From contig CAZLCE010000006.1 in assembly GCA_964558305.1 (NCBI GenBank), positions 3,231-67,230 on the forward strand: a DNA stretch of 64,000 nucleotides, given 5' to 3'. A program made the translations under genes and the position numbers. Every line of letters starts with the position of its first letter. The first letter of the stretch is position 1. Below the pieces are notes generated by a model that was not told the DNA's origin, searched no databases, and saw only the letters and a list, made by a program, of their open reading frames with translations. The DNA comes from an uncultured Candidatus Bathyarchaeia archaeon. GTDB lineage: Archaea > Thermoproteota > Bathyarchaeia > Bathyarchaeales > Bathycorpusculaceae. Below are positions 11,909 to 44,785 of the stretch, piece by piece.

Positions 11909-12025
11909 GAAGCATCACTATGGATATGAAAAAACGTAAACAGCAACTATTAAGCCTTTATCAAGAATAAAAGGAATCAAAAATTCTTTAAAATCCAACA
12001 GACATAATTATTAGGTTGTGAGGAA

Positions 12026-16799: not shown

Positions 16800-16802
16800 A
16801 CA

Positions 16803-23755: not shown

Positions 23756-25066
23756 TTATGTCTCTCTCATGTTCTTGAGAATTTCTCCAACATTTTGAAC
23801 TGTGTATCCTATATCTTCGTTGGTATGAGCCACAGAGAGATGACATCTCTTGTTTGCGTGCGGAAGTATGAATATACCCTTTCTCATCATTTCTCTCTGG
23901 AATTTCTTGAATAGTTCTGTGCTAGAGGTCAACGTGTCTCTATAGTCGCGAATTTTCTTTTCTGTAAAAAGAAGTTGAAATACCGACCCAAAACCAACTG
24001 TTTGAGCTCTAAGCTTGAGTTCAGCGATAATCTCATTAATTTGCTTTCTAAGGTTTTCTCCAAGATTGAAAAGCCGTTGACAAGCACCATCTTTCTCTAA
24101 TTCTCTAATTGTAGCCAGAGTTGCAGCCATGCTGATGGGGTTTCCATTAAAAGTTCCCCCATAATCAACCCTTCCTGTAGGTTTAAACATTTCCATGATA
24201 TCTTTTCTTCCACAAACTGCAGCCACAGGAAAACCATTTGCCATCGCTTTTGCAAATGTAGTCAGGTCTGGTGTTACATTGAATAGCTTTTGAGCCCCAC
24301 CTAAATTGTGGCGAAAACCGCTAACTACCTCATCAAATACCAATATGATCTCATATTTCATAGTTATTTCTCTGAGGAACTTTAAGAACCCTTTTTTAGG
24401 GGGAATGCATGTGGCACTTCCGTGAAGAACTGGTTCAGTTATGAGTGCAGCGATATCGTCTTTTTGTTTTTTTATCGTTTTCTCCAAAACTTCAGAATCA
24501 TTGAAGGGAACAACAATTGTGTTTTTGGCAACCTCCATAGAGAGACCATCAGTGTCGGGAACGGGTATCGGGGATTCTCTTGGACCCGCATTTCTTAAGG
24601 ATGGACCTGAGCTGACAGAAACATAGTCGTGCCAACCATGATATGCGCCTTCAAACTTTACAATTTTCCATCTTTTTGTGTAGGCTCGAGCAACACGAAT
24701 AGCATGATAAGTTGCCTCAGTTCCACTGTTACAAAATCTAACCATCTGCGCAGAGGGAACGTACTTTTTGATCTTTTTGGCAACTTCAACTTCTAACTCG
24801 TTGGAAAAGCCATATATTATCCCCTTGTCCAGCTGATTTTTCACCGCAGCAACTACACTAGGGTGCGCATGCCCAAGAACAACGGGACCAAAAGCTAAGT
24901 GATAATCAATGTATTCGTTGCCATCTACGTCGTATATCTTCGCGCCTTTCGCTTTCGATATAAAAATAGGATACGGATCAGAAAATCGCAGTGCACTGTG
25001 AACACCGCCAGGTGTCAGTTTCTTTGCTTCTTCAAAGAGCTTCTTAGATTTGTTCAGCTTTTTCAT
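23756..25066 (-). CDS. Class III PLP-dependent aminotransferase / glutamate-1-semialdehyde-2,1-aminomutase-like
   Basis: 436 aa. LTPGGVHS..YIDYHLAFGPVVLGHAHP..FDEVVSGFR..TTFAKAMANGFP motifs match the GSA-aminomutase-like subgroup. Substrate unknown. Confidence 0.85.
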   Translation of the reverse strand: MKKLNKSKKLFEEAKKLTPGGVHSALRFSDPYPIFISKAKGAKIYDVDGNEYIDYHLAFGPVVLGHAHPSVVAAVKNQLDKGIIYGFSNELEVEVAKKIKKYVPSAQMVRFCNSGTEATYHAIRVARAYTKRWKIVKFEGAYHGWHDYVSVSSGPSLRNAGPRESPIPVPDTDGLSMEVAKNTIVVPFNDSEVLEKTIKKQKDDIAALITEPVLHGSATCIPPKKGFLKFLREITMKYEIILVFDEVVSGFRHNLGGAQKLFNVTPDLTTFAKAMANGFPVAAVCGRKDIMEMFKPTGRVDYGGTFNGNPISMAATLATIRELEKDGACQRLFNLGENLRKQINEIIAELKLRAQTVGFGSVFQLLFTEKKIRDYRDTLTSSTELFKKFQREMMRKGIFILPHANKRCHLSVAHTNEDIGYTVQNVGEILKNMRET

Positions 25067-25081
25067 ACTATTTTCCCTTGA

Positions 25082-26503: not shown

Positions 26504-26566
26504 TTTTCATCTTTTTAAGGTTGTTTCAACTTCCTTTAAAATCTTTCCAGACCTCGGCTTCGTTAG

Positions 26567-26579
26567 GAAAATATTTAAA
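26567..26579 (+). promoter_or_regulatory. Putative BRE/TATA element GAAAATATTTAAA upstream of the D-aminoacylase-MttB1-RACo operon
   Basis: An A-rich BRE-like stretch plus TATTTAAA, ending 20 nt before ATG 26599, which would give a leaderless or near-leaderless transcript. The same 13-mer recurs at 33108-33120. Confidence 0.4.
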
Positions 26580-26598
26580 GTGTGCGAATTAATAGCAG

Positions 26599-28275: not shown

Positions 28276-28284
28276 AAACCTCAC

Positions 28285-29730
28285 TTGGTCAGGAAAACTC
28301 TCCAGCTATTGTCTAAAGACGAAGTTCAAACAATCCATGCAAGTTCTCTTAAGGTGCTGGAAGAGGTCGGCGTTCAAATAGACAATGAAAACGCGTTAAA
28401 GTTATTGGCTGATGCAGGGGCAAACGTGGATTACAAAGAGAAACTGGTTTATATTCCCGAGTCGCTGGTTCAGGAAGCTTTGGAAAAGGTTCCATCAGAG
28501 TTTAGGCTTTATGATTTTGAACATAAACAGGAACTTTTGTTCGCTGGCGATAATGTTTACTTTAATCCTGGCTCAACAGCCCTCTACATATTAGATGGGC
28601 AGAGCATGGAGATGAGACGTCCAACCTCAAAAGACTTGACTGATTTTGTTAGGTTAACAGACGCTCTTCAGCACGTTCATGCTCAGAGCACTGCCATGGT
28701 TATCAGCGACGTACCCGACTCCGTGGTAGATCGGTTCCGCTTCTATCTAATACTCAAGAATTCAGCGAAACCAATCATTGCTGGCGCCTTTACAATAGAA
28801 GGTCTTTATGACATGAAACGCATGCTTGAAATAGTTGTCGGCGGAGAGGAGGCTTTAAGGAAAAAACCGTGTTTATTAATGGATGTGTGTCCATCACCGC
28901 CGTTGAAATGGAGTAAAATAACCTCTCAAAACTTGATAGATTCGGCTAAATTTAGCATACCTACCGAAATAATACCTGCGCCGCAATTAGGGTCAACGGC
29001 GCCTGCAACACTTGCTGGGCTGCTTGTGCAGCACAACGCTGAATTTCTATCGGGTCTTGTTATGTCTCAACTCGTGAATGCTGGGTTGCCAATTGTTTAC
29101 AGTGGTTCACCCTCTTTGATGGACATGAGATATGGGACCGGATGCGTCGGCAACATAGAGGTTGCCATGCTCTCGGCAGCGTACTCTCAAATAGCAAAAT
29201 TCTATGGTATCCCCTCAGGCGCATATTTGGGCATAAGCGAAACAAAGCTAGTCGACGCACAAACTGGGCTTGAATCCGCCATCGGATTAGTCATCGGGAC
29301 GCTGGCGGGCATCAACTGCATCACAGGTCCTGGAATGTTGGGTTTTGAAAACTGCCAGAGCTTTGAAAAATTGGTCATCGACAACGAAATCTGCGGAATG
29401 GCATTACGATTGATAAGAGATATTACGTTTAATGATGAAACTCTTGCATTTGACTTAATCAAGAAAGTGGGTCCAGGCGGACATTTTCTGTCTGAAAAGC
29501 ACACTCTTAAGTGGTTTCAGATTGAGGAGTATTTGCCTTCTTCGGTGATAGATAAGACAAGTAAATCACGTTGGGAATGCAGTGAGGCAAAGGATGCATT
29601 GAGCAGAGCCAAAGCCTCTGCAGATAAAATATTAGAGGAACATCATCCGAAGCCCTTGCCTTCTGATGTCGAGAAAGAACTAGATTCCTTTATATCTGAA
29701 ATCCTTAAACAAGCAGCAAAAACTTTGTGA
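28285..29730 (+). CDS. MttB-superfamily (trimethylamine methyltransferase-like) substrate:corrinoid methyltransferase, non-pyrrolysine type (paralog 1)
   Basis: 481 aa with a TTG start 10 nt after the upstream stop. LSKDEVQTIHASSLKVLEEVGVQI..ALKLLADAGANVD matches the MttB-family N-terminus. The frame is uninterrupted, with no in-frame TAG. Confidence 0.85.
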   Translation: MVRKTLQLLSKDEVQTIHASSLKVLEEVGVQIDNENALKLLADAGANVDYKEKLVYIPESLVQEALEKVPSEFRLYDFEHKQELLFAGDNVYFNPGSTALYILDGQSMEMRRPTSKDLTDFVRLTDALQHVHAQSTAMVISDVPDSVVDRFRFYLILKNSAKPIIAGAFTIEGLYDMKRMLEIVVGGEEALRKKPCLLMDVCPSPPLKWSKITSQNLIDSAKFSIPTEIIPAPQLGSTAPATLAGLLVQHNAEFLSGLVMSQLVNAGLPIVYSGSPSLMDMRYGTGCVGNIEVAMLSAAYSQIAKFYGIPSGAYLGISETKLVDAQTGLESAIGLVIGTLAGINCITGPGMLGFENCQSFEKLVIDNEICGMALRLIRDITFNDETLAFDLIKKVGPGGHFLSEKHTLKWFQIEEYLPSSVIDKTSKSRWECSEAKDALSRAKASADKILEEHHPKPLPSDVEKELDSFISEILKQAAKTL

Positions 29731-29734
29731 GAAA

Positions 29735-31624
29735 GTGCATATGTCCCTCAAAAAATTGATAACTCTCATGTTTGAACCTGACGGAATAAAGTCAAAATTC
29801 AGAAAAGACACCACAATACTCTGCGCTCTGAAGGAAGCGGGCTTGAAAATAAGGTCCGAATGTGGTGGCAGAGGAGTTTGCGGTAAATGCAAGATAATCG
29901 TTCAAAACGCCCTAAGCTTCAGCGCGGTCACCAACGCAGAAAGAGAACGTCTGTCTGCTTCTGAATTAAAGTCTGGGTATAGGCTGGCTTGTGAATGTTC
30001 AGTTTTGAAGGACGCTAAAATCTTCATACCCGAAGAAAGCCGCGCAATAACTAGAAAACTACTCATAGAAGGAACCGAAAGACCTGTCAAAGTAAAACCA
30101 ACAATTCGCAAACTATATGTAAAGATACCGAAACCTTCCTTAAGCGACATTCGCTCAGATGTCCAGCGGCTCCAGGATTCTTTAAAGGACATTTACAAAA
30201 TTGAAATAACTGAAATTGACCATACACTTTTGAAAAAGTTGCCACGAATTCTTCGCAACGCAAACTGGAAAGTCACGGTTACAATTTGGGATGAAAAGGA
30301 AATAATTTCTGTGGAACCTGGCGACACGGTAAAAAAGTCCTATGGAGTAGCCATCGACATTGGAACATCAAAAATAATTTGCTATCTTTCCGATCTGACA
30401 AATGGAGAGCTTATTGGCACAGGATCTGTGGAAAATCCCCAAACGATGTATGGCGAAGACGTAATTTCTAGAATTGCTTATGCTTCACAGTCAGATGATT
30501 CGCTAAAGAAATTGCAAAAACTTGTCATCGACGGTGTGAACGCCACACTCTTGGAAGCTTCTCAAAAATCTAGACTTAGCTTGCAGAACGTTTACGAGAT
30601 AACAGTGGTTGGAAACACGGCAATGCATCACATTTTCCTAGGTATTCAACCTAAGTATCTCGGCTTGGCACCTTACGTTCCAGCCATAAGTGATCCGGTC
30701 ACTGTGAAAGCAAGGGATTTGTCGATTAAGGCGAATCCTTCAGCCAAAGTACACGTGCTTTCTGTTATCGCAGGTTTTGTAGGCGCAGATGCGGTCGCAG
30801 ACATCATTTCAACAGGAATCTATGAATCAGATAAACTTTCAATGATGGTTGACATAGGAACTAACACTGAAGTAGTATTAGGTGATAAGCATGGAATTGT
30901 GGCTTGCTCGTGCGCGTCTGGACCTGCCTTTGAGGGTGCGCACATAAAGTTTGGCATGAAGGCTGTAACTGGCGCTATAGAGAGACTGCAGATAAACCCT
31001 GAAAACTTCGAGGTAAGCTATCAAGCAATTGGAAACGTTAAACCAATGGGCTTGTGTGGTTCAGCGATAATTGACGCTGTTGCCAACCTATTGAAGTGCA
31101 AAGTAATTGATATGGATGGAAGATTTACAGATGCTCAAATCAAGTCTAGACTGAAAACTACGAATGAAACGAAGAGCTTTATCCTCGTTTCAAGGGAAGA
31201 GGGAGCAACACGCGACATCACGATTACACAGAAAGACATCAGGGAAGTTCAGTTGGCTAAGGCTGCCATTTACACAGGATGCTACATTCTCATGAAAAGA
31301 AAGAACATAAAACCCTCCGACATCAAAAAATTCTATGTAGCTGGAGCCTTCGGCAATTACATAAATCTTGAAAATGCAAAACTAATCGGCATGCTGCCGG
31401 ACATCCCCACAAAAATTATAACTTTTGTTGGAAATGCCGCTGGAGCAGGTGCGAGAATGGCTCTGATTTCGAAGGCTCAGCGACAGATAGCAGCTTCTAT
31501 CAGTCGGAAAGTAGATTACGTTGAACTCGCTTTGGATCTTGATTTTCAAAGGGAGTTTGCTTTGGCTACGTGCTTTCCGCACAGAGATTTGGACAGGTTT
31601 CCATGTGTCGAAAACCTCTTCTAA
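29735..31624 (+). CDS. Reductive activator of corrinoid proteins, RACo-type ([2Fe-2S] ferredoxin domain + ASKHA ATPase, DUF4445)
   Basis: 629 aa. N-terminal plant-type ferredoxin motif SECGGRGVCGKCKI..LACE, and ASKHA phosphate motifs GVAIDIGTSK and MVDIGTNTE. The start is GTG 29735 or ATG 29741. Confidence 0.85.
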   Translation: MHMSLKKLITLMFEPDGIKSKFRKDTTILCALKEAGLKIRSECGGRGVCGKCKIIVQNALSFSAVTNAERERLSASELKSGYRLACECSVLKDAKIFIPEESRAITRKLLIEGTERPVKVKPTIRKLYVKIPKPSLSDIRSDVQRLQDSLKDIYKIEITEIDHTLLKKLPRILRNANWKVTVTIWDEKEIISVEPGDTVKKSYGVAIDIGTSKIICYLSDLTNGELIGTGSVENPQTMYGEDVISRIAYASQSDDSLKKLQKLVIDGVNATLLEASQKSRLSLQNVYEITVVGNTAMHHIFLGIQPKYLGLAPYVPAISDPVTVKARDLSIKANPSAKVHVLSVIAGFVGADAVADIISTGIYESDKLSMMVDIGTNTEVVLGDKHGIVACSCASGPAFEGAHIKFGMKAVTGAIERLQINPENFEVSYQAIGNVKPMGLCGSAIIDAVANLLKCKVIDMDGRFTDAQIKSRLKTTNETKSFILVSREEGATRDITITQKDIREVQLAKAAIYTGCYILMKRKNIKPSDIKKFYVAGAFGNYINLENAKLIGMLPDIPTKIITFVGNAAGAGARMALISKAQRQIAASISRKVDYVELALDLDFQREFALATCFPHRDLDRFPCVENLF

Positions 31625-33072
31625 GGCGCCAAGGCTTTGGTTGCTGTTTTTAATATTTCTTCAAGTTGCTTCTTTACATTTTCATCTAAAGATGGAGGTT
31701 CGTGTTCTACTAGGATTTTCTTAACCTTCTCTCGTGCAACTTCCACTATACTTTTACTGCCCATTTTCTCCCATTGGGACCGTGAGGCTCTATTGGCGAG
31801 TTTGGGAAAGAAGTATTCATCGCGAAAGTGCTGAAGGGTATGTTTTTGTTGGAGAAAATTTGTCGACTCTCTAGCAACTTTTATTATGACGTCTACTGCA
31901 AGCGTTTCCTCATCAAAGTCTATGCCCCTGACTGCTCTGAATATCATTCCGAAGATTTCATCATCAATAACCAATTGCTCATAACTTACGGTAATGCCAC
32001 CTTCAATAGATCCAGCGCCCGACAGCGCATTGGCTCCCGAGAGTGCAGGTAAAAGACCGTTTAAGGCTTTTTCAAAAGCAGCCTGTTCGTCTAGCATTTT
32101 AGAATCGGTGTCTAGTCCGTAGACGTCTGAAGGCAAATCGTAGTATTTTGCAAGTTGTACGCATCCCACGGACATTATTGTCGCTTCAATTCCATCGCAA
32201 GCTTGTCCCGTCGACATGTCTAGAGGTATGCATCTTGGGGAGTATTCAACGGGATTGCCAGGGTTTAGAAGCTGTACGATTACTATTCCGGCTAACATTT
32301 CCACGTTTTGCTGAACTAAGGTTCCAGCTAATGTGACTGGGCTGGCTACTCCAGCAAGAGGGCAAGGTAACACAGCAATAGGTAAGTTATGCTTGGCTGC
32401 TCTGGCCATTATTCTTGTAACTTCATTTGAGAATTGTAGTGGGCTCGTTGGTGAAGCGCTGCAAGTTACTATTGGACGTTTTCTCAGCTCTTCCTCTCCA
32501 ACAAGGGTCTCAAGCATTTTAATTATGTATCGGTAACTGTTATCGTCGAACGGGGTTGCATCAAAATTTTTGCCAGTATTCCTAATTATCGCTTCAACAG
32601 CGTAAATATCTCTCAAACGCTCTGGCACATCACTTGGGTAGACAATCATGGTTTGACTGTGAATGTTTGGGAGAAAATCCACGATTTTCGTCAAGTTCTC
32701 AACATCTTTTCTAGTGGAAGGTCGCACTGCCCCTGAATCGATGTCAATCACATTGGCTGCACCGCCCACAGGATGAGTGTAGATTTTTCCGTCTCCAAGT
32801 TCAATGTTATGCTTTGATTCTCTAGCGTACAACGTTACATGTTTGGGTGCCTTTCTGACGCATTCCTCGACCAAACTGGGCGACATTTTAGCCCTTTTAT
32901 TGGTGAAGTCAACGTTCATTCCGTTATCAGCCAAAAACTTTAGAAAATCATTATCATGAATCAAGACGCCGACTTCTTCCAAGATTTTCAGGCTGGAAGC
33001 ATGTATGTTCTCGATTTGATTTCGAGTTAGAAATTCTAGCTTCAATTTTATCACTAACGTCTTTTTCCTCAT
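31621..33072 (-). CDS. MttB-superfamily substrate:corrinoid methyltransferase, non-pyrrolysine type (paralog 2)
   Basis: 483 aa. LTRNQIENIHASSLKILEEVGVLI..FLKFLADNGMNVD. Clearly homologous to paralog 1 but divergent. No in-frame TAG. Confidence 0.85.
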   Translation of the reverse strand: MRKKTLVIKLKLEFLTRNQIENIHASSLKILEEVGVLIHDNDFLKFLADNGMNVDFTNKRAKMSPSLVEECVRKAPKHVTLYARESKHNIELGDGKIYTHPVGGAANVIDIDSGAVRPSTRKDVENLTKIVDFLPNIHSQTMIVYPSDVPERLRDIYAVEAIIRNTGKNFDATPFDDNSYRYIIKMLETLVGEEELRKRPIVTCSASPTSPLQFSNEVTRIMARAAKHNLPIAVLPCPLAGVASPVTLAGTLVQQNVEMLAGIVIVQLLNPGNPVEYSPRCIPLDMSTGQACDGIEATIMSVGCVQLAKYYDLPSDVYGLDTDSKMLDEQAAFEKALNGLLPALSGANALSGAGSIEGGITVSYEQLVIDDEIFGMIFRAVRGIDFDEETLAVDVIIKVARESTNFLQQKHTLQHFRDEYFFPKLANRASRSQWEKMGSKSIVEVAREKVKKILVEHEPPSLDENVKKQLEEILKTATKALAP

Positions 33073-33107
33073 AGCCTAATGAATAGTGTAATCTGTTAGT
33101 TTAAGCT

Positions 33108-33120
33108 GAAAATATTTAAA
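33108..33120 (+). promoter_or_regulatory. Putative BRE/TATA element GAAAATATTTAAA in the MttB2 / corrinoid-protein divergent intergenic region
   Basis: Exact 13-mer match to 26567-26579. It lies between the divergent starts 33072 (-) and 33180 (+). Confidence 0.35.
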
Positions 33121-33143
33121 TTTTTTATGCGATCCCATGGAAT

Positions 33144-33153
33144 AAGTTTAAAT
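33144..33153 (+). promoter_or_regulatory. Putative TATA element AAGTTTAAAT upstream of the corrinoid-protein gene
   Basis: It ends 27 nt before GTG 33180. The same 10-mer occurs at 41734-41743 upstream of the SBP gene. Confidence 0.35.
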
Positions 33154-33179
33154 TTCATAACCAAGTAAGCAGAAGTTCG

Positions 33180-34756: not shown

Positions 34757-34886
34757 TAGAGATTGGCTGTTTGGAAGTTAAACCTAACTTTTTCTTTTCG
34801 GATTTATTATGCTTTATCTTTTTTGTTTATGCTCTGGATCGATGGATCCGTTATGGAGAGTAAGTTTTAAGTGTAAAATGCCTTAA

Positions 34887-36053: not shown

Positions 36054-36094
36054 AAACTCCAATTTTTCCATGAAGGAACTAATAAGGTGTGGTC

Positions 36095-36928
36095 ATGGAG
36101 AAACTGATCATCACAGTTGCTCCCACTGGTTCTGTTCCTCGTAAAAAAGACACGCCTTACCTGCCAATAAGTCCAGATGAAATTGCTGAAACAGCCTATC
36201 TTTGCGAGCAAGAGGGCGCATCAATTATTCACATTCACTGCCGTGATGCCAATGAGGAACCTACATCAGATTATGCTATTTTCAAGGAAACCGTGGACAA
36301 AGTTCGGAACCGTTCAAAGCTGATAATTATGACATCAACAAGTGGCATGGCAGGTAAAACAGATGAAGAACGAGCTCAGCCACTAAAGACAAAACCAGAG
36401 ATGGCAAGCCTCACGACGGGTTCACTAAACTTTGCTGGGCGCAAACCATCAGTTGTATATGTAAACACTTGGGAGACGATAACATTTCTCGCTAAGAGAA
36501 TGCTTGAGGCGGACATTAAGCCAGAGATTGAAGCCTTCGATGTAGGTTTCATTCAACAAGGCATAAAGCTCATTGAACAAGGGCTAATCAAACCGCCTGC
36601 CCATTTTCAGTTGGTTATGGGTGTTGACGGTGGTATTCCTGCCACTTCAGATAACTTGCTACACATGTGTCGTCAACTTCCGCTCAGCGCTACATTCTGT
36701 GTGGCTGGCATAGGTAGGTGGCAATTGACTATGACTGCATTGGCAATAATTATGGGTGGGCATGTGAGAGTTGGACTTGAAGACAATATTTTCTACGTTA
36801 AGGGTAAATTGGCTCCAAACGAAGAATTTGTGGCTAGAGTACGGCGCATTGCGAAGGAGCTTCAACGCGAAATAGCTACACCCGAAGAGGCGCGGAAGAT
36901 TTTAGGATTGCAAATAAAACCACGCTAA
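36095..36928 (+). CDS. BKACE-family enzyme (3-keto-5-aminohexanoate cleavage enzyme-like, DUF849)
   Basis: MEKLIITVAPTGS..ISPDEIAETAYLCEQEGASIIHIHCRD (Zn ligands H-x-H) is typical of beta-keto acid cleavage enzymes. The ATG at 36095 is preferred over the track's GTG at 36089 because AAGGTG lies 8 nt upstream. Confidence 0.85.
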   Translation: MEKLIITVAPTGSVPRKKDTPYLPISPDEIAETAYLCEQEGASIIHIHCRDANEEPTSDYAIFKETVDKVRNRSKLIIMTSTSGMAGKTDEERAQPLKTKPEMASLTTGSLNFAGRKPSVVYVNTWETITFLAKRMLEADIKPEIEAFDVGFIQQGIKLIEQGLIKPPAHFQLVMGVDGGIPATSDNLLHMCRQLPLSATFCVAGIGRWQLTMTALAIIMGGHVRVGLEDNIFYVKGKLAPNEEFVARVRRIAKELQREIATPEEARKILGLQIKPR

Positions 36929-36950
36929 CTTTGTCAAGCGGATGCAAGTA

Positions 36951-37949
36951 CTACTTTATTCTGTGGCATGCCACGTAATGTTCTTCTCCCACTTCGATAA
37001 GTTCTGGCTCTTCCTTTCTGCAAACTTCCTCGGCATTTGGGCATCTAGTGTGAAATCTACAGCCAGGAGGCGGATTTACAGGGCTTGGAATTTCTCCTTT
37101 AATTGTTAGTTTTATGCGTCGTGATTTTGGATCAGGTACAGGCACAGCAGATATGAGCGCTTTAGTGTAAGAGTGCAAGGGTTCATAAACAATATCCTCA
37201 GATGTTCCCATTTCCATTATTTTACCGAGGTACATTATGGCTATTCTATGGCACATGTGACGAGCCGTGGCTAGGTCATGAGTTATGTATAAAATCGAAA
37301 CGTTGAATTTCTCCACTAACTCTAAAAAGAGATTCAGTATTTCCGCTCTTATTGACACATCGAGCATTGATATTGGCTCGTCTGCAACTACGAATTCGGG
37401 ATTAAGTATGAAGGTTCTTGCTACGACAACTCTCTGTCTTTGTCCTCCGCTCAGCTCGTGGGGGTATCTGAGTAAAAATTCGTTTGGAGGAACTACCTTC
37501 ACGTCTTCAAGAGTTTTTATCACTCTTTCTTCTACTTCCTTCTCGCTGCTCAAAACCTTTTGAATGCGTAAGCCTTCTGCAATGATGTCCATGACGGTCT
37601 TTCTTGGGTTTAGGGATTCGTAAGGGTCTTGGAAAACTGTCTGCATTTTGCGCCGCAGTTGTTTCTGTTTCATTTGCTTTCTAGTGAGTTTAGTGATATC
37701 TTCGCCCTTGAAAAAAACTTTCCCACTTGTTGGGTCAATTATTTTAAGGACCAATCTTCCAGTGGTTGTCTTTCCGCTGCCACTTTCTCCAGCTAAACCA
37801 AAAATTTCTCTTGTTTTTATATCAAAGCTTACATCATCTACGGCTCGAACGAACGATTCTTTCTTTGAAAGTAAAGCTTGGAAAAAGCCTCTTCTAACGG
37901 GAAACCACTTTTTTAAGTTTAACACTTCTACTACTTTATTTTCAGACAT
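36951..37949 (-). CDS. oppF: Peptide/nickel (Opp/Dpp-type) ABC transporter ATP-binding protein
   Basis: 332 aa. Walker A GESGSGKTT, signature LSGGQRQR, Walker B VVADEP, and a C-terminal oligopeptide-transporter domain with PPPGCRFHTRCP. Confidence 0.9.
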   Translation of the reverse strand: MSENKVVEVLNLKKWFPVRRGFFQALLSKKESFVRAVDDVSFDIKTREIFGLAGESGSGKTTTGRLVLKIIDPTSGKVFFKGEDITKLTRKQMKQKQLRRKMQTVFQDPYESLNPRKTVMDIIAEGLRIQKVLSSEKEVEERVIKTLEDVKVVPPNEFLLRYPHELSGGQRQRVVVARTFILNPEFVVADEPISMLDVSIRAEILNLFLELVEKFNVSILYITHDLATARHMCHRIAIMYLGKIMEMGTSEDIVYEPLHSYTKALISAVPVPDPKSRRIKLTIKGEIPSPVNPPPGCRFHTRCPNAEEVCRKEEPELIEVGEEHYVACHRIK

Positions 37950-37969
37950 TTCGATTCTTCCATCTCAAA

Positions 37970-38971
37970 TCAACTATTCCCATACAAGTGGCATGCGACA
38001 AGATGCTCTTTTTCCTTCATCTTCGTTACAGCTGGCTCCTGTTCCTTGCAGATGGTTTTTGCGTAGGTGCATCTGGGATGGAATCTGCAACCTTTAGGCG
38101 GATCTAAGAGGTCTGGTGGAGACCCGGGGATCGAGTTCATTCGTGTTCTGGTTGATTTTATGTTTGGAAAAGCTTGAATTAACCCTTGCGTATAGGGATG
38201 CAGCGGTTCTTCAAATAAGTCTGAAACATCTGCGTATTCAACTATTTTTCCTGCATACATTATAGCAACTTTATCGCAAGTGTCAGCTATAATCGATAGG
38301 TCATGTGTTATCAAGATCACAGCCAAGTTCAGTTTTTTTCTCAAATCTTCCATTATACTTAGTACCTGAGCCTGAACAATAACGTCTAGTGCTGTTCCCG
38401 GTTCATCGGCGATTAAGAGTTCTGGATTACATGCTAAAGCCATTGCTATAAGCCCGCGTTGCCTCATGCCGCCGCTTAGCTCGTGAGGATAACTTTTTAT
38501 CCGTTTTCTTTCCATTCCTACTAATTCCAATAGTTCTTCGGCTCTGCTCGCGGCTTCTCTTCTGTTAAGTTTTGATTCATGAGCCAAAATAGCTTCTACG
38601 ATCTGATCTCCAAGGCTGTAAAGCGGGTCAAGCGCATTCATAGCGCCTTGAAACACTAAAGATATTTTCTTCCACCGAATTTTCCTCATCTCTTTTTCGG
38701 AAATTCTTGCAATGTCAAGGTCTTTTAAGAGGATCTTGCCGTCGGTTATTTTGCCTCGAGATGGAAGAATTTTCATGATAGATAACGCTACAGTAGTTTT
38801 GCCGCAGCCAGATTCACCTGCCAAACCCATGGCTTGTCCTTCTTTAACCTGAAAGTCGACGCCATCCACTGCTTTGACGGGGCCTCTTTTCGTGAAATAG
38901 TATGTTCTTAGGTTTTCGACGTTTAGAAGAGACATGTTCAAAAGTTGCCTTCTTGTAATGTATGTAAACAC
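37970..38971 (-). CDS. oppD: Peptide/nickel (Opp/Dpp-type) ABC transporter ATP-binding protein
   Basis: 333 aa. GESGCGKTT, LSGGMRQR, LIADEP, PKGCRFHPRC. The start may be the internal M (MSLLNVENL) at 38935. Confidence 0.9.
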   Translation of the reverse strand: MFTYITRRQLLNMSLLNVENLRTYYFTKRGPVKAVDGVDFQVKEGQAMGLAGESGCGKTTVALSIMKILPSRGKITDGKILLKDLDIARISEKEMRKIRWKKISLVFQGAMNALDPLYSLGDQIVEAILAHESKLNRREAASRAEELLELVGMERKRIKSYPHELSGGMRQRGLIAMALACNPELLIADEPGTALDVIVQAQVLSIMEDLRKKLNLAVILITHDLSIIADTCDKVAIMYAGKIVEYADVSDLFEEPLHPYTQGLIQAFPNIKSTRTRMNSIPGSPPDLLDPPKGCRFHPRCTYAKTICKEQEPAVTKMKEKEHLVACHLYGNS

Positions 38972-39073
38972 TTAGCTTGGGAGTTCATCCTTGATATAAA
39001 TCTTTTGAAAGACGTGAGGTATATTGTTTTGAAGAACCAATAAGGAATGCGTCAAAAAACGGTTAGATTAAAT

Positions 39074-40645
39074 TTAGATTCTTTCTCGAAGTTTTGGATT
39101 AAATACTTCATCCAAAGCATATCCGATGAAAATAAATGATATAGAAATGGCTGCTATGCATAAACCAGGCGGAAGGACCCACCACCATTTTTGAACGCCT
39201 CCGGGTGATATTAAAGCGTCATGAAGTATTCTTCCCCACGTCATGACTTCAAAGGGATAAAGTCCTAAAAAGCTTAGGTATGCCTCTGAATAAATTGCTG
39301 CGGGTGCTGACATGGCTAATGTAACATATACCAAATTCATAACATTTGGGGTTAGAACACTGAAGATGATGTAAAGCTCGCTTCCTCCAAGAATCCTTGA
39401 CGCATCGACAAAGGGTCTTTCCTTAAGGCTGAGAACCTGAGACCTCACTATTCTGGCGAACCCCATCCACCCGAGGAGAGAAATCATTACAATGATAATC
39501 CATAATGATGGCCCCGTGACTGCTACGAATACTAAGAGCAGGGGAAGCTCTGGTATTACAAGAAAGGTGTCAGTTATCCTCATCATTATTTCATCTATAA
39601 TTCCACCAAAATATCCTGAAACCATTCCGACGAACAAGCCTATAGTCGTGGATAGAAAGGCTCCGAGGAATCCCACAAGGAGGGATATTCTTGTTCCATA
39701 TAATAGCTGAGAAAATATGTCCCGTGCAAATTTGTCGGTTCCAAGTAGACCGAAGGTTTCGCCATAAAGTTTCAAGTCGAGGTCGTCTAAATAAACCGTG
39801 ACGTTCGATACATTTTCGCCAAACAGTGCTTCAACACCGAATGTGTAATTGGTCGGTTTAGAAAATACTTTTCTGTCTATATCCAAGATGTCAGAATCTA
39901 TAAGATTAAGATACCATGGTGGGGGGCCAGTCCTCATCGTTGGTTTGATCCATTTTCCAATGGGGTAGATTCCGCCTGTCGTTTTGAGGCCCTCAGCAGG
40001 GGACCATAGTGTTTTTGGTTCGCCCTCAGCCTGTTTGATGAAAACTGTAATGTTAAGGTCAGCTAGCTTAATAGTAATGTTTTGTGGGGCGTCAACCTTA
40101 ACATATATCTTTCCGACCCACTTGCTAGGCGGATTTGAATAGGGATAGGTGAATTCCTTAGCCAGAACCGCTTCTGCTTTCTCTTTTTGCGCAATTTCAT
40201 CTTGCCTTAAGCATATAGCAATGCAGCCTGGACCACTGCTGGGACTTCCCTCATTAGATAAATACTCTAGCGAAATGTATTGACTTGATGCGTTTGTTGT
40301 GAATCCCCACTGCTCCAACGAAACATTAGTCGAGAAGCTTGGGTCTTGAATAGGATTGACGTTTTCACTTAGATTTCCATAACCAGGCAGGTACCTAATC
40401 CATGAAGGGAGGGCGAGGGGACTAGCTGTTATTTCGGTAGGGATTGCTAAAGGGTCGTATGGCGTCAGCAAAGGCGCGGCAAGAGCTATTACAATGAATG
40501 CAGCAAGAATAGCGATGCCTAGTACTCCTCTTTTGCTTTGCATAATAATTCTTAAAACCTTGAGGAAATCTCTAAAGCGGGGTGCAATTTTTGATTTATA
40601 CGAAGCGGACATGGGTATCTCATCCATATTTAATTCGTGGATCAA
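39074..40645 (-). CDS. oppC: Opp/Dpp-type ABC transporter permease (OppC-like) with a large extracytoplasmic insertion after TM1
   Basis: 523 aa. It has TM1, then about 235 residues before the conserved LLGTDKFARDIFSQLLYGTRISL box, whereas I recall a much shorter segment in typical OppC/DppC. The start may be 40627 or 40612. Confidence 0.85.
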   Translation of the reverse strand: MIHELNMDEIPMSASYKSKIAPRFRDFLKVLRIIMQSKRGVLGIAILAAFIVIALAAPLLTPYDPLAIPTEITASPLALPSWIRYLPGYGNLSENVNPIQDPSFSTNVSLEQWGFTTNASSQYISLEYLSNEGSPSSGPGCIAICLRQDEIAQKEKAEAVLAKEFTYPYSNPPSKWVGKIYVKVDAPQNITIKLADLNITVFIKQAEGEPKTLWSPAEGLKTTGGIYPIGKWIKPTMRTGPPPWYLNLIDSDILDIDRKVFSKPTNYTFGVEALFGENVSNVTVYLDDLDLKLYGETFGLLGTDKFARDIFSQLLYGTRISLLVGFLGAFLSTTIGLFVGMVSGYFGGIIDEIMMRITDTFLVIPELPLLLVFVAVTGPSLWIIIVMISLLGWMGFARIVRSQVLSLKERPFVDASRILGGSELYIIFSVLTPNVMNLVYVTLAMSAPAAIYSEAYLSFLGLYPFEVMTWGRILHDALISPGGVQKWWWVLPPGLCIAAISISFIFIGYALDEVFNPKLRERI

Positions 40646-41624
40646 CAGCTCCGTAAATCATGTCAACTAAGAAATTGGCGGCAATGACGCAAAGACTCAC
40701 AATGTAAAAGATCGCTTGTAAAGCGGGGTAATCCCATTCTTCAATCGATGTCCAAATCCACATTCCTAATCCTGGATATGTGAAAATTGTTTCGGTGACT
40801 AACGCTCCTGAGAGGGTGAAGGCAAAGGCTATGGCTACTTGTGTTATTATTGGTAGCGACGCGTTTTTTAGTGCGTGTTTAAAAAGTATCTTAAAATTAC
40901 TTAGTCCTTTTGCTTTTAGGGTAATTAGATAGTCCTCACTTAAGACCTCCAGCATTGACGCCCTTGTCAAAAGAACATATCCTCCAATAGTGATTATTAC
41001 TAATGTCAAGGCTGGCAAGAAAAGATACTGCAAGCGAATCGCAAATTCTATTAGAAAATTATCGGGTTTGCCATGAATAGCCCACTCCGGGGGATATGAA
41101 TGACCTAATGGAAACCAGCCTAAGTTGTAGGAGAATATTAAGAGCAAAAGCATTCCTATCCAAAAAACCGGCAGTCCCTGCGTCACTACCGAAAACATTG
41201 AAAAAAAGGTGTCTGCAATTTTTCCTCTTTTGTAAGCCGCTACCACTCCAAGAATCAATCCCATTACAACAGCTATAACTTCTGCAGTGATGCACATTGA
41301 AAGGGTATTTGAAAGACGTGAAAACATTTCCTCGGATATAGCTTCTCCTGTGCGATAAGAATAACCAAACTGAAAAGTCAACAAATTCTGGAGATATTTC
41401 AAATATCTTACATATATCGGCTCCAATAGTCCAAAGCGTACTTTGAGTTCCTCAATTTGTCCAGGACGAAGTCTCTTTTCGGATGCTAACATTTCTACTG
41501 GGCTTCTAACCATAAAGATGGCGAAATTAATTGTAATTACAATAAAGACTAGGACGATGGAATAAACAGCTCTCTTAACAACATACCCTCGTAGACCCAT
41601 ACTTGCCCTCTCGCTTTTATTCAC
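40620..41624 (-). CDS. oppB: Opp/Dpp-type ABC transporter permease (OppB-like)
   Basis: 334 aa. YVVKRAVYSIVLVFIVITINF N-terminus, an EAA-like loop (LEVLSEDYLITLKAKGLS), and 6 TM segments. Confidence 0.9.
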   Translation of the reverse strand: MNKSERASMGLRGYVVKRAVYSIVLVFIVITINFAIFMVRSPVEMLASEKRLRPGQIEELKVRFGLLEPIYVRYLKYLQNLLTFQFGYSYRTGEAISEEMFSRLSNTLSMCITAEVIAVVMGLILGVVAAYKRGKIADTFFSMFSVVTQGLPVFWIGMLLLLIFSYNLGWFPLGHSYPPEWAIHGKPDNFLIEFAIRLQYLFLPALTLVIITIGGYVLLTRASMLEVLSEDYLITLKAKGLSNFKILFKHALKNASLPIITQVAIAFAFTLSGALVTETIFTYPGLGMWIWTSIEEWDYPALQAIFYIVSLCVIAANFLVDMIYGAVDPRIKYG

Positions 41625-41733
41625 GAGGCATTTATTTATGTTTTTTGCGTACGACGAAGTTCTCCATATAATTTATGATTCAAGTGCAAACATCAAAATT
41701 CTCTCTCTTAGCAGTGTAGAAGATATTTCCATA

Positions 41734-41743
41734 AAGTTTAAAT
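41734..41743 (+). promoter_or_regulatory. Putative TATA element AAGTTTAAAT upstream of the SBP-dockerin gene
   Basis: It lies about 46 nt before ATG 41789, with GAGAGGAGAG (SD-like) in between. It sits in the divergent oppB/oppA intergenic region. Confidence 0.35.
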
Positions 41744-41788
41744 CAACATTTAAAGCCTAGTGTAATAGCGAGAGGAGAGAGAATTAAA

Positions 41789-44074
41789 ATGGACATAAAT
41801 TCTAAAGGCTTCAAAAAGATGATAATGACCTCAGCATTGCTACTTCTGATGCTAGATTTAACTTTCGTTTCAGGTCAAGCTGGTGGAGGTTCTGGAGGAT
41901 ATGAAAAGTGGGGGCCAAGAACTAATTACTTACAGTGTATAATCTATACGAATTATGAGACTGAGGCTACGGCTTTTCGTAATGGGCTTATTGACATTAT
42001 GGATTGGCCTTTAGACTATGATACATATATGTCTATAAAAGATGATCCTGCCTTCATTAAAGAAACACTTACAATGTATGATTGCTATGACATCGATATA
42101 AACTGTTTAAGATGGCCAACAAGCGATTACCGCTTTAGACAAGCTATCGCTTATTTAATTGACTACTCAACGTTTTATACTAATATTTTGAGGGCTTTCG
42201 CTGGCGAGTTGATGGACAATATTATATGGTCGCAATGGGTCAAGTGGTATAATCCGGGTGCCCCGAAGTATTGGTATGATAATGCTACAGCCTTATCAAT
42301 ACTTGCTGAAGCAGGTTACCAAAATTGGGACGGCGATCCACAACTGGAATGGAAAGCGCCGAATAATACAATTTACCAATTGCCCAACTTGGAATTTTAT
42401 GCAAGAGAGGATGATCCTCTTCGAGCGGCTTTAGGAACGATGTTAAACGCACAGTTAAACGCTATAGGCATTCCCACAACTTTCTCAGTAGCATCACGTA
42501 ACATTTGTTGGAACCACGCATACAAATTTTATACCTATCACTTATATACAGCGGGAATGGGTCCATTCCCAGACCCGCAATTCTTGTATGACTACTATCA
42601 CAGTAAATATGCTACGCCAGACATCGCTTGGTGCATGAACAATGTGTTCTTCATGAACGATACTTACGATTATTGGGTTGAACAACTCAAGTTTGCAGCT
42701 AATGACACTACGGCAGTACAAGCATGCAAAAACGCTCAAGAAATATTTATGGACCAAATACCCCTAATCCCAGTTTACCATTCAGCCGGCAAAAAAGCTT
42801 ACAAAGCTACATATGGGCATCACACTGGTGAGGAGGCATACTGGGATATGCCTTGGAACGGCGTTGTAAACTCGATAATACCAACAGTAGATTCTGGCAT
42901 TAACGATTATTGGACCCTCTTGAATGCGCATCCTGGAAGCGTTCAGAAAGGCGGTGTATTACGATACGGATGGCTATCCGACGCAGATCATGTAAATCCC
43001 GTGACGGTATACTCTATCTGGGACTCTTACCTGCTGGAAGAGCTTTACAGCACAATGATTATGCGCGATCCTTTCACGGGAGCCAGAGTTCCATGGCTTG
43101 CAAAAGATTGGACTGTTGGAACATGGAATTATGGAGGAAAAAATGCAACAAAATTAACGATGCGCCTTCATGAAAACCTCAAATGGTCTGATGGTACACC
43201 ACTCAATTCAACTGACGTAGCATTCACCATGAAATACATGTATGATACTTCTTCACCTTCCTACTACCCCTACATGGAGATGATTGACGGCATAAATACA
43301 ACAACTCCACATATTGAAACGCCAGATGCCACCACAGTTGTCATCTACTATACTGTTGAATCAGTATGGGCTCTCGAATGGGCGGGAGATACACCAATAA
43401 TACCCAAGCATGTATGGGAAACAGTACCACCCAAACAATGCGACCAGAAAGGCGAATTTACAACGACAGGCAACCTAACATGCTCAGGACCATACCTAAT
43501 CGACAGTTACGTGAGAGGCGAATGGTGGCTCCTAAGAGCAAACCCCTACTTCTTTAGATATTCACCCCCACATGATCTATCCCTAACAGACATGGGAAGC
43601 CAAAAAACAATCGTTTGCCAAGGATACGGCTTAAACGTAACCTTGACCTGCGCAAATATCGGATACTTCACAGAATCAGCAACAATAGAAGTCTTTGCAA
43701 ACGGAACCTCTGCCGGCACTATGTCGGGAATAACAGTGACAACTGCAACACCATGTACAATAACGTTCACTTGGGACACTTCTGGCTTTGCTAAGGGCAA
43801 CTACAACATAAGCGCCCTTATTTGGCCTGTTCTAGGCGAAATAGACACTGCCGACAACAATTTCACTGATGTTTGGATTTCTGTCGCTATAGTTGGTGAT
43901 GTTAACGCTGATAAGAAGGTTGATATGGTAGACCTTTGGGAAGTTGCTAGGCATTTTGGCATTGACTATCCGGACCCAAGATACGTGCCCAACTTTGACA
44001 TAGACAACAACGGCAAAACAGACATGATAGACCTCTGGACAACAGCCAAAGAATACGGCAAAATAGACCCATAA
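41789..44074 (+). CDS. oppA: Family-5 (peptide/nickel) ABC substrate-binding protein fused to C-terminal CARDB-like and dockerin-like modules
   Basis: 761 aa. Signal/anchor MIMTSALLLLMLDLTFVSG. SBP_bac_5-like core about 550 aa. CARDB-like segment (NVTLTCANIGYF..FTWDTSGFAKGNYNISA..GEIDTADNNF). Two dockerin-type Ca-binding loops (DVNADKKVDMVD, DIDNNGKTDMID). Confidence 0.85.
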   Translation: MDINSKGFKKMIMTSALLLLMLDLTFVSGQAGGGSGGYEKWGPRTNYLQCIIYTNYETEATAFRNGLIDIMDWPLDYDTYMSIKDDPAFIKETLTMYDCYDIDINCLRWPTSDYRFRQAIAYLIDYSTFYTNILRAFAGELMDNIIWSQWVKWYNPGAPKYWYDNATALSILAEAGYQNWDGDPQLEWKAPNNTIYQLPNLEFYAREDDPLRAALGTMLNAQLNAIGIPTTFSVASRNICWNHAYKFYTYHLYTAGMGPFPDPQFLYDYYHSKYATPDIAWCMNNVFFMNDTYDYWVEQLKFAANDTTAVQACKNAQEIFMDQIPLIPVYHSAGKKAYKATYGHHTGEEAYWDMPWNGVVNSIIPTVDSGINDYWTLLNAHPGSVQKGGVLRYGWLSDADHVNPVTVYSIWDSYLLEELYSTMIMRDPFTGARVPWLAKDWTVGTWNYGGKNATKLTMRLHENLKWSDGTPLNSTDVAFTMKYMYDTSSPSYYPYMEMIDGINTTTPHIETPDATTVVIYYTVESVWALEWAGDTPIIPKHVWETVPPKQCDQKGEFTTTGNLTCSGPYLIDSYVRGEWWLLRANPYFFRYSPPHDLSLTDMGSQKTIVCQGYGLNVTLTCANIGYFTESATIEVFANGTSAGTMSGITVTTATPCTITFTWDTSGFAKGNYNISALIWPVLGEIDTADNNFTDVWISVAIVGDVNADKKVDMVDLWEVARHFGIDYPDPRYVPNFDIDNNGKTDMIDLWTTAKEYGKIDP

Positions 44075-44656: not shown

Positions 44657-44785
44657 AATGTAGAAAATCTTTAAAAGAACAAGATTATTGGTTAAGTCAA
44701 TTAGGTAATAAGTTTACTTTAAACGGGGGCTCATGAACTGTTCATCGCACCTTACGTTCCAAGTCCACCGCAAGTAATACGTCAA

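Follow-up and report, generated by a model that had tools for sequence, protein, structure and literature searches.

A conserved bathyarchaeal gene cluster associates pyrrolysine-free MttB homologues with peptide import and enzymes resembling those of lysine fermentation

MtgBCA of Desulfitobacterium hafniense and MtcB, MtpB, MtyB and MthB, together with RamQ, of Eubacterium limosum are corrinoid methyltransferase systems that act on quaternary amines without pyrrolysine (Pyl), and the same four-component architecture is found in the gene cluster described here. The cluster consists of 15 genes, among them those for two MttB homologues (MttB1 and MttB2), and lies in a 64,000-nucleotide stretch of DNA (hereafter, the window) from an uncultured Candidatus Bathyarchaeia archaeon (GenBank assembly GCA_964558305.1, contig CAZLCE010000006.1, positions 3,231 to 67,230 of the forward strand). 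Similar modules have been reported from archaea: isolated mtrH genes adjoin corrinoid-protein genes in termite-gut Bathy-6 (PMC7886697), mtrH-mttB-corrinoid-activase clusters occur in Culexarchaeia (PMC9723716), and mtrH, MttB-like and corrinoid-protein genes lie in proximity in Atabeyarchaeia and Freyarchaeia (PMC11291895). Bathyarchaeal mttB has been read as non-methanogenic methylotrophy through the tetrahydromethanopterin (H4MPT) Wood-Ljungdahl pathway (PMC10321748), and this group of papers (PMC7886697, PMC10321748, PMC9723716, PMC11291895) also cites Brockarchaeia for Mtr-independent feeding of methyl groups to H4MPT. The Bathy-6, Culexarchaeia, Brockarchaeia, Atabeyarchaeia and Freyarchaeia clusters are like ours in combining an isolated MtrH-like protein, a corrinoid protein and an MttB-like protein without MtrA-G or Mcr, and their predicted function is the same, with methyl groups passing to H4MPT or tetrahydrofolate (H4F) and on to the Wood-Ljungdahl pathway. 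Both the core module and the role proposed for it are already known from published work, and while a preliminary description of the window was right that such a module is present, the Mtr-independent methyl route that it drew from the module had been published before for Bathyarchaeia, Culexarchaeia and Asgard archaea.

What differs is the company that the module keeps. In the published archaeal clusters the substrate is given as trimethylamine (TMA), a quaternary amine or "unknown", and the sections of those reports that we consulted mention no link to Opp, D-aminoacylase-like, M20, lysine-dehydrogenase-like, Kce-like or HemL-like genes. Compared with the non-Pyl quaternary-amine systems, the present one has an archaeal host and a presumed H4MPT acceptor, its MttB homologues are only 31-34% identical to their counterparts with all four glycine-betaine-binding residues of MtgB replaced, and genes for peptide import, hydrolases, an amine dehydrogenase and an enzyme that cleaves beta-keto acids (BKACE) stand in place of betaine transporters. 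New in our data are the tie, robust to rearrangement, of a large bathyarchaeal MttB clade to peptide import, to deacylases and peptidases, and to a lower pathway resembling lysine fermentation, and the active-site evidence that both paralogs differ in specificity from the enzymes for TMA and for acidic quaternary amines. Searches of the literature in full text returned no paper on this combination (MttB and BKACE appeared together only in a single, unrelated paper on bacteria) and nothing on Bathyarchaeia with 3-keto-5-aminohexanoate. On balance, and with moderate confidence, we favor the reading that the cluster couples the import and hydrolytic cleavage of a small compound, either peptide-like or of the N-acyl amino-acid type, to corrinoid-dependent N-demethylation and to the breakdown of the demethylated skeleton.

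This reading depends first on the neighborhoods of MttB2 orthologues. Relatives of MttB2 form more than 120 protein clusters (61-95% identity), and all of those that carry a name belong to Candidatus Bathyarchaeia/Bathyarchaeota. Loci were collected through an identical protein (L001), homologues of 63-82% identity (L002-L005 and L014-L016), a scan of GTDB species genomes (L006-L013) and a metagenome scan (L017-L096), with MttB2 identity across the fetched loci of 62-95%, and their open reading frames (ORFs) were annotated by phmmer against the 15 window proteins. The GTDB scan used very specific peptide patterns and gave eight loci, all eight from metagenome-assembled genomes of Bathyarchaeia; the statistics come from the metagenome scan. 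The gene set recurs around MttB2 orthologues in about 90 independent contigs. When neighbors within 10 kb were counted in the 24 non-redundant loci that extend at least 6 kb to each side of the MttB2 orthologue, the amidohydrolase, the M20 hydrolase, the saccharopine-dehydrogenase-like gene and any Opp gene were each found in 83% of the loci, the HemL-like aminotransferase in 67% and the BKACE in 62%, compared to 54% each for the corrinoid protein, MtrH and MttB1, and 29% for the RACo-type activase (reductive activator of corrinoid proteins). The corrinoid-protein gene is immediately upstream of MttB2 in 23 of 65 loci. Hence, the adjacency is not a chance event; the preliminary description had named accidental adjacency as the outcome that would undo its reading, and with the flanking genes co-conserved in 62-83% of the informative loci this outcome did not materialize.

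The order of the genes is a separate matter from their presence. Seven loci repeat the full order of the window (L001, L013, L017, L029, L041, L049 and L090), and others show Opp-MttB2-amidohydrolase-M20 (L006, L007 and L026), class III aminotransferase-M20-amidohydrolase-BKACE-MttB2 (L012, L084 and L086), or BKACE, an acetoacetyl-/acetyl-CoA-synthetase-like gene, the aminotransferase and MttB2 (L066 and L071), the synthetase-like gene connecting BKACE and aminotransferase in some of the distant loci; in L003, L004, L040, L048 and L051 the second MttB has its own, second saccharopine-dehydrogenase-like neighbor. Links that are kept through different gene orders argue for functional coupling and against the inheritance of a frozen block. 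This bears directly on the possibility that there is no common pathway at all, i.e., that an importer with peptidases, a beta-keto-acid or lysine-type enzyme pair and a methyltransferase system have simply been kept together by vertical inheritance. Such a history would agree with the eight transcription units of alternating orientation, with the exclusively bathyarchaeal names among the related loci, and with the variable module content (RACo in 29% of loci, corrinoid protein and MtrH in 54%). We nonetheless think it unlikely, since adjacency that holds at 62-65% MttB2 identity and in several gene orders implies repeated retention or re-assembly, BKACE, the aminotransferase or the amidohydrolase adjoin MttB2 without the other modules in L044, L055, L083, L089 and L010, and an exact 13-mer is common to two promoter regions of the cluster (see below).

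More distant MttB2 orthologues (63-65% identity) adjoin genes related to basic amino acids, namely those for an ornithine/arginine decarboxylase, arginase-family and ADI/DDAH-family proteins, an ornithine carbamoyltransferase (OTCase) and an amino-acid permease. For instance, the orthologue in L014 (8302-13001) is flanked by an ornithine/arginine decarboxylase and a divergent saccharopine-dehydrogenase-like gene, which could be a carboxyspermidine dehydrogenase/decarboxylase pair, that in L015 (9359-12729) is flanked by an arginase-family gene and two PALP enzymes, and in L016 an ADI/DDAH-family gene (11444-12523) lies 15 bp downstream of MttB2. These neighbors point to arginine, ornithine or polyamine metabolism, and the theme that recurs around MttB2 is one of basic amino acids and beta-keto-acid cleavage. 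Directly beside MttB2 in L004 (11621-13315, minus strand), L015 (7352-9142, minus strand) and about 12 more loci is a gene whose product, 564-596 aa long, contains an HEEYGH motif and matches DUF885 only weakly (two copies compared were 45% identical); this protein, which is absent from the window, is a probable metallopeptidase and may represent a further peptidase of the same pathway. In one sublineage (L002, 11767-13928, and L018), the stretch from MttB2 to the amidohydrolase contains two radical SAM genes in place of those for the corrinoid protein, MtrH, RACo and MttB1; radical SAM genes were seen in these two relatives only. The BKACE, saccharopine-dehydrogenase-like and OppC genes of L002 look fragmented, possibly through assembly or frameshift errors or through decay.

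The second line of evidence comes from the MttB paralogs themselves, which match the MTTB profile over nearly their full length (residues 5-471 of MttB1 and 12-476 of MttB2) and belong to the MttB superfamily (PF06253/COG5598). They share 37% identity with each other and 31-35% with D. hafniense MtgB and with the Pyl-containing MttB (Pyl-MttB) of Methanosarcina barkeri, and their relatives of solved structure are 7xcl, 2qne/9yce and 4yyc, of which M. barkeri MttB (7xcl) is the closest to MttB2 (264 bits vs. 231 bits for MtgB). As the preliminary description had it, neither depends on Pyl: both ORFs are uninterrupted, with a sense codon at the Pyl position. In MtgB, glycine betaine is bound by Y97 and F356 (cation-pi interactions) and by R312 and H348 (carboxylate), as shown experimentally (PMC13080624); R312, which binds the acidic group of the substrate, is reported to be shared by every member whose function is known, and these all act on acidic quaternary amines (PMC13080624). 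In Pyl-MttB, Tyr364, a proton shuttle, is required for activity, and together with the Gly110-Thr111 pair it serves as a criterion for this enzyme (PMC9842639).

We compared these positions in a MAFFT alignment of 115 sequences (85 in the MttB2 clade and 26 in the MttB1 clade). At the Y97 column Pyl-MttB has Gly, as do 82 of 85 MttB2 sequences, and all 26 MttB1 sequences have Ser; at R312 there is Tyr in Pyl-MttB, Asp in 75/85 of the MttB2 clade and His or Gly in the MttB1 clade. The H348 column, which corresponds to Tyr364 of Pyl-MttB, holds Ser in 80/85 MttB2 sequences and Ser or Thr in MttB1 sequences, whereas at F356 the MttB2 clade shares Gly with Pyl-MttB (74/85) and the MttB1 clade has Glu throughout (26/26). 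The column of Pyl334 itself, Leu in MtgB, is Asp in 77/85 MttB2 sequences and Leu, Ile or Met in those of the MttB1 clade. The window proteins read S/G/T/E (MttB1) and G/D/S/G (MttB2) at Y97/R312/H348/F356, with Ile and Asp, respectively, in the Pyl column, where MttB2 carries the motif VYGLDT[DS]SK. Compared with the M. barkeri enzyme, MttB2 thus has no UAG codon, Asp for Pyl334, Ser for Tyr364 (Thr in MttB1) and Gly for Thr111, and keeps Gly110; the methyl acceptor downstream is an MtrH-like protein here and the coenzyme M methyltransferase MtbA there. MttB2 therefore lacks the features that define TMA-MttB as well as those that define MtgB-type enzymes, with acidic residues in place of Pyl and Arg. 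Replacement of R312 by Asp or Gly suggests a different substrate, possibly a cationic one, and for MttB2 in particular a substrate that differs from the known ones, and is plausibly cationic, may be inferred.

Accordance of the paralogs with a known specificity, the other outcome that the preliminary description had named as fatal to its proposal, was not observed. The corresponding explanation, ordinary methylotrophy in which the MttB homologues demethylate TMA or a free quaternary-amine osmolyte and the peptide and amino-acid genes are unrelated neighbors, has the MTTB domain in its favor, as well as the fact that characterized non-Pyl members all use small quaternary amines, and it is the customary reading in that the best NCBIfam match of the paralogs is the TMA methyltransferase model and published surveys annotate bathyarchaeal mttB accordingly. 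In fact, the proposal of bathyarchaeal non-methanogenic methylotrophy rests largely on "trimethylamine methyltransferase" annotations (PMC10321748). We consider this explanation improbable for the present cluster: both proteins score below the cut-off of 525 of the TMA methyltransferase equivalog TIGR02369 (MttB1 441, MttB2 489), their overall identity to MtgB and Pyl-MttB is low, there is no in-frame UAG and both Pyl334 and Tyr364 are replaced, and so are all four binding residues of MtgB, including the Arg found in every characterized member. Further, the co-conservation of hydrolases and importer with MttB2 (83%) exceeds that of the corrinoid protein itself, and the scanned window ORFs yielded no betaine transporter of the BCCT or ProU type. 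It is therefore unlikely, judging from the sequences, that the large MttB2 clade acts on TMA or on osmolytes of the glycine-betaine type, and the data point to an undescribed methylated amino-acid-type substrate.

A match to the Rfam model PYLIS_3 within MttB2 might be taken as the sign of a pyrrolysine gene, and we rejected it as such. The UAG aligned to the model starts at offset 958 of the MttB2 ORF, out of frame, the ORF is unbroken, and TAG is an ordinary stop codon in the window (8 of 46 genes, MttB2 included). The match is coding-sequence homology, i.e., similarity to M. barkeri mttB, and not a functional pyrrolysine insertion element; since coding homology alone triggers the model, such matches are no evidence of pyrrolysine.

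The likeness of MttB2 to Pyl-MttB gives rise to another explanation, namely Pyl-independent demethylation of small tertiary or secondary methylamines that amidohydrolases or DDAH-like enzymes free from N-methyl amides or guanidines, with the Asp of MttB2 replacing Pyl in binding or protonating the amine. The conserved Asp in the Pyl column (77/85 orthologues), the Gly common to MttB2 and Pyl-MttB at two "aromatic" MtgB positions and the amidohydrolases as the most constant neighbors would all fit, and a rough neighbor-joining tree placed MttB2, with two other bathyarchaeal paralog clades, beside Pyl-MttB rather than MtgB, and MttB1 apart; that tree, however, was built without bootstrap and with only two references (MtgB and Pyl-MttB, taken from PDB alignments). 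The ADI/DDAH-family gene next to MttB2 likewise speaks for this explanation but was seen in a single lineage, that of L016 and its duplicate L076, and the dehydrogenase-BKACE pair is left without a role. We know of no biochemical precedent for carboxylate-assisted transfer from a methylamine to a corrinoid, and overall we give this explanation little credence.

A bolder version of our own reading takes the MttB2 clade as a new functional class, in which Asp stands for pyrrolysine and a second Asp for the substrate-binding Arg. Its substrates would be N-methyl amines that are cationic and not betaines, for example lysine methylated at N-epsilon or the methylated forms of ornithine, arginine or beta-lysine, freed from imported detrital peptides, with the methyl groups going to the H4MPT Wood-Ljungdahl pathway and the skeleton to a lysine-fermentation-like route of amine dehydrogenase, Kce-like BKACE and Kat-like aminotransferase. 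In this specific form we regard the proposal as rather doubtful. If its reading of the Asp-for-pyrrolysine replacement is true, Bathyarchaeia would harvest protein- and osmolyte-derived N-methyl groups, and methylated amino acids would have an anaerobic sink in sediments that has so far gone unrecognized.

The remaining parts of the corrinoid methyltransferase system were all found as the preliminary description had listed them: in addition to the two MttB homologues, the cluster encodes a corrinoid protein and a RACo-type activase, and its pterin methyltransferase is MtrH-like. The corrinoid protein (start probably at 33192) has the B12-binding_2 cap and B12-binding Rossmann domain of the MttC/MtbC/MtgC type and the DxHxxG motif, as GDIHDIG, and scores about 180-196 bits against the NCBIfam MtbC, MtgC and pyl_corrinoid models, under the cut-off of each. 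The MtrH-like protein passes the NCBIfam MtrH-family subfamily NF002142 (311 > 287) and remains under the equivalog cut-offs of mtrH (215 < 271) and MtgA (200 < 550). The activase (start possibly at 29741) has all its domains, i.e., the N-terminal 2Fe-2S domain with the Cys motif CGGRGVCGKC and the linker, middle and ASKHA C-terminal domains, with an AcsV-like score of 495, under the cut-off of 800. In agreement with the Mtr-independence claimed before, the Pfam scan, which covered 53 ORFs of the window (all but a few small ones) and on which all our statements about window ORFs are based, gave no match to MtrA-G domains. The corrinoid cluster of Ca. Baizosediminiarchaeum ligniniphilus (Yu et al. 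2023) is also bathyarchaeal, with a pterin methyltransferase feeding H4MPT; its lignin O-demethylase "MtgB" was considered and rejected as a counterpart, since its substrate methyltransferases are proteins of about 300 aa that act on methoxylated aromatics and are reported to lack homology to known methyltransferases, vs. the MttB-family proteins of about 480 aa here.

At the uptake side, the importer has the composition of the Opp/Dpp type: its binding protein belongs to family 5, its two ATPases carry the oligo_HPY domain and there are two permeases. The N-terminus of the binding protein is hydrophobic and signal-like in translation. The best solved-structure relatives of the amidohydrolase are the D-aminoacylase 1m7j and the N-acyl-D-Glu deacylase 3gip (E about 1e-69), and that of the M20 enzyme is the Sulfolobus carboxypeptidase Sso-CP2 (4mmo, E = 2e-59). 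A hydantoinase/carbamoylase/beta-alanine route was rejected, since the amidohydrolase matches dihydropyrimidinase/hydantoinase models only over its first 60-120 residues. Downstream of the cluster (58733-61474, plus strand), the window also encodes a predicted secreted protein of 913 aa with Kelch repeats, a Zn-dependent phospholipase C domain and a type I dockerin at its end. The type I dockerins on this protein and on the Opp binding protein, which is likewise predicted to be secreted, hint at cell-surface anchoring of the cohesin-dockerin type.

For the fate of the skeleton, two annotations of the preliminary description could be sharpened, their families being right. Its "saccharopine-DH-like" oxidoreductase is a member of the saccharopine dehydrogenase family that resembles L-lysine 6-dehydrogenase by its nearest relative, 3abi (P. 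horikoshii PH1688, E = 3.5e-70; saccharopine and carboxyspermidine dehydrogenases match at 1e-16 or weaker), and 3ABI is L-lysine 6-dehydrogenase (PMC10413350). Its class III aminotransferase is HemL-like, passing the HemL subfamily PRK00062 (469 > 398) and not the hemL equivalog TIGR00713 (474 < 527), with glutamate-1-semialdehyde aminomutases as its best solved-structure relatives. The best family of the BKACE is Kce (NCBIfam equivalog, 340 bits vs. a cut-off of 382), and it aligns with the Kce structure 2y7d (E = 1e-60) including the HxH and EDN motifs, which we take to be zinc ligands; the NetSyn and ASMC preprints offered no context or active-site key for this BKACE subfamily. Together, the amine dehydrogenase, the Kce-like enzyme and the HemL-like transaminase may parallel the Kdd-Kce-Kat sequence in the lower part of (alternative) lysine fermentation in Cloacimonas acidaminovorans and Fusobacterium, where an NAD(P)-type amine dehydrogenase likewise stands beside Kce and a HemL-like aminotransferase: Kat, the 3-aminobutyryl-CoA aminotransferase that acts after Kce, was first annotated HemL-like (PMC3149608). 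The logic that is matched runs from beta-amino acid to beta-keto acid, to acetoacetate and aminoacyl-CoA, and to transamination. Unlike the window, however, lysine fermentation involves no corrinoid methyltransferase, and our dehydrogenase resembles L-lysine 6-dehydrogenase. A canonical lysine fermentation cluster was rejected because kamA and kamDE are missing from the window.

Assembled from these parts, the pathway that we favor would proceed as follows. The importer, with its dockerin-bearing binding protein, would take up a peptide-like or N-acyl conjugate, from which the amidohydrolase and the M20 hydrolase would release an N-methylated amino acid, most likely a basic one (lysine- or ornithine-type) or a beta-amino acid. 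MttB1 and MttB2 would each move a methyl group onto the Co(I) corrinoid protein, and the MtrH-like enzyme would hand it to a pterin, H4MPT or H4F, completing a putative route to methyl-pterin; H4MPT is the presumed acceptor because published work has Bathyarchaeia using the H4MPT Wood-Ljungdahl pathway. The RACo-type activase would re-reduce adventitious Co(II). The lysine-6-dehydrogenase-like enzyme could then oxidatively deaminate the demethylated amine to a carbonyl compound, the Kce-like BKACE could convert the resulting beta-keto acid with acetyl-CoA to acetoacetate and an (amino)acyl-CoA, and the HemL-like enzyme could transaminate the remaining amino group.

Several observations weigh against this pathway. 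Only 54% of the 24 loci have the corrinoid protein near MttB2, with the same share for MtrH, and both are missing from the 10 kb around MttB2 in L006, L007 and L026, which makes the link of MttB2 to the hydrolases and importer tighter than that to methyl transfer. The genes that feed Kce in lysine fermenters, kamA and kamDE, are missing from the window, in which the Pfam scans found no aminomutase domains. The saccharopine-dehydrogenase family typically acts on terminal CH2-N groups and yields aldehydes; an amine dehydrogenase that makes the beta-keto acid for BKACE is therefore no easy fit. The HemL-like protein, which passes the HemL subfamily threshold, could be an enzyme of tetrapyrrole biosynthesis. 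In addition, we cannot name an N-methylated compound that would require all enzymes of the cluster, the substrate being proposed from context, and the cluster is organized in eight alternating transcription units (by the ORF listing), not a single operon. Operation in the reverse, anabolic direction, in which methyl-H4MPT would supply MtrH and the corrinoid protein with methyl groups, and an acceptor derived from amino acids would be N-methylated by the MttB homologues (e.g., in osmolyte or cofactor synthesis), is very improbable even though methyl-transfer half-reactions are in principle reversible and an anabolic role was raised for the corrinoid protein-MtrH pair of termite-gut Bathy-6 (PMC7886697), given the catabolic context (importer, hydrolases, amine dehydrogenase and a thiolytic-type cleavage enzyme), the demethylating activity of all characterized MttB-superfamily enzymes and a cluster without biosynthetic ligase or synthase genes.

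If the MttB2 clade indeed departs from TMA and glycine-betaine-type substrates and is tied to peptide uptake, hydrolases and a lysine-fermentation-like lower pathway, current metabolic maps mis-assign the substrate of these enzymes, the substrate range of the MttB superfamily reaches past acidic quaternary amines, and methyl groups of amino-acid derivatives become a candidate one-carbon source that competes with methylotrophic methanogenesis. The cluster also offers a defined set of 15 genes for biochemical tests.

The 15 genes (Table 1) were all found contiguous, in the order and with the domains that had been assigned to them (15/15, by ORFs and Pfam scans), and the stated limits of the cluster coincide with the outer ends of its two outermost genes. 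The label "accessory island", on the other hand, did not hold up. The cluster has a GC content of 0.426, compared with 0.431 for the remainder of the window, with a flat sliding profile, and GC content at third codon positions is 0.399 and 0.412, respectively; no tRNA genes were found in the 64-kb window and no integrase or transposase domains among the scanned ORFs. The neighbors are archaeal housekeeping genes both upstream (NFACT, RadA, fumarase, TBP, TldD/PmbA and Lhr helicase) and downstream, where a PAS histidine kinase and its accompanying response regulator are encoded along with a THUMP methyltransferase, phosphoribosyl pyrophosphate (PRPP) synthase, HMG-CoA reductase and the CCA-adding enzyme. 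Flat composition, the lack of tRNA and mobility genes, and housekeeping neighbors leave the label unsupported, and the cluster is a conserved chromosomal catabolic cluster of Bathyarchaeia rather than a mobile island. The proteins of the window flanks had no matches in any of the collected loci, whose 10-kb flanks seldom extend past the cluster and are uninformative on insertion sites.

Table 1. Features of the cluster in the window (positions count from the first nucleotide of the window; aa, amino acids; BRE, transcription factor B recognition element).
Feature	Position	Strand	Evidence
HemL-like class III aminotransferase, 436 aa	23756..25066	-	Pfam Aminotran_3
M20 metallopeptidase/carboxypeptidase-like hydrolase, 473 aa	25082..26503	-	Pfam Peptidase_M20 + M20_dimer
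Divergent promoter region, M20 hydrolase/amidohydrolase	26504..26598	.	BRE/TATA-like 13-mer GAAAATATTTAAA
D-aminoacylase-like amidohydrolase, 558 aa	26599..28275	+	Pfam Amidohydro_3
MttB-superfamily paralog 1 (MttB1), 481 aa, without pyrrolysine; proposed substrate:corrinoid methyltransferase	28285..29730	+	Pfam MTTB, E 2.6e-95
RACo-type activase (reductive) for corrinoid proteins, 629 aa ORF	29735..31624	+	Pfam Fer2 + RACo_linker + Raco_middle + RACo_C_ter
MttB-superfamily paralog 2 (MttB2), 483 aa, without pyrrolysine; anchor gene of the conserved cluster	31621..33072	-	Pfam MTTB, E 1.2e-105
Rfam PYLIS_3 match within MttB2	32013..32114	-	54.7 bits vs. gathering score 38
Divergent promoter region, MttB2/corrinoid protein	33073..33179	.	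GAAAATATTTAAA 13-mer + TAGTGTAAT element
Cognate corrinoid protein, 220 aa ORF	33180..33842	+	Pfam B12-binding_2 + B12-binding
MtrH-like methyl-corrinoid:pterin methyltransferase (putative), 305 aa ORF	33839..34756	-	Pfam MtrH (PF02007), E 2e-77
L-lysine-6-dehydrogenase-like amine dehydrogenase, 388 aa	34887..36053	+	Pfam Sacchrp_dh_NADP + Sacchrp_dh_C
Kce-like BKACE, 279 aa ORF	36089..36928	+	Pfam BKACE, E 8e-98
OppF, OppD (ATPases), OppC, OppB (permeases)	36951..41624	-	ABC_tran + oligo_HPY (two genes); OppC_N + BPD_transp_1; BPD_transp_1_N + BPD_transp_1
Opp/Dpp family-5 solute-binding protein, 761 aa	41789..44074	+	Pfam SBP_bac_5 + C-terminal Dockerin_1

Two sequence elements recur between genes of the cluster. 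The BRE/TATA-like 13-mer GAAAATATTTAAA occurs exactly in the window only at 26567-26579 and 33108-33120 (plus strand), i.e., in the two divergent promoter regions of the M20 hydrolase/amidohydrolase and MttB2/corrinoid-protein gene pairs; with at most one mismatch there are three matches, a number that 0 of 100 shuffles reached, the one-mismatch copy being at 44663, upstream of a small methyltransferase gene. The element TAGTGTAAT is found exactly only at 33084, between the genes for MttB2 and the corrinoid protein, and at 41758, between oppB and oppA, and showed no enrichment at one mismatch. These shared elements lend weak support to a possible co-regulation of the genes concerned. A sigma-70 promoter and terminator scan gave no enrichment, its model being inapplicable to an archaeon.

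A few further observations concern the rest of the window. The 760 bp that separate the Lhr helicase gene from the cluster (22997-23755) contain ORFs of at most 86 aa, no Rfam match and no tRNA, and the scanned ORFs at 4946-5401, 13975-14676 and 53868-54392 had no Pfam match. A second M20-family peptidase gene (451 aa; 56261-57616, minus strand) lies 12 kb downstream of the cluster, and TldD/PmbA-type metallopeptidase genes are located at 15369-18206, making this a peptidase-rich region. Finally, the upstream flank has a LarA-like gene of the lactate racemase family (nickel-pincer cofactor) at 10625-11908 (minus strand), which bears no relation to the cluster.

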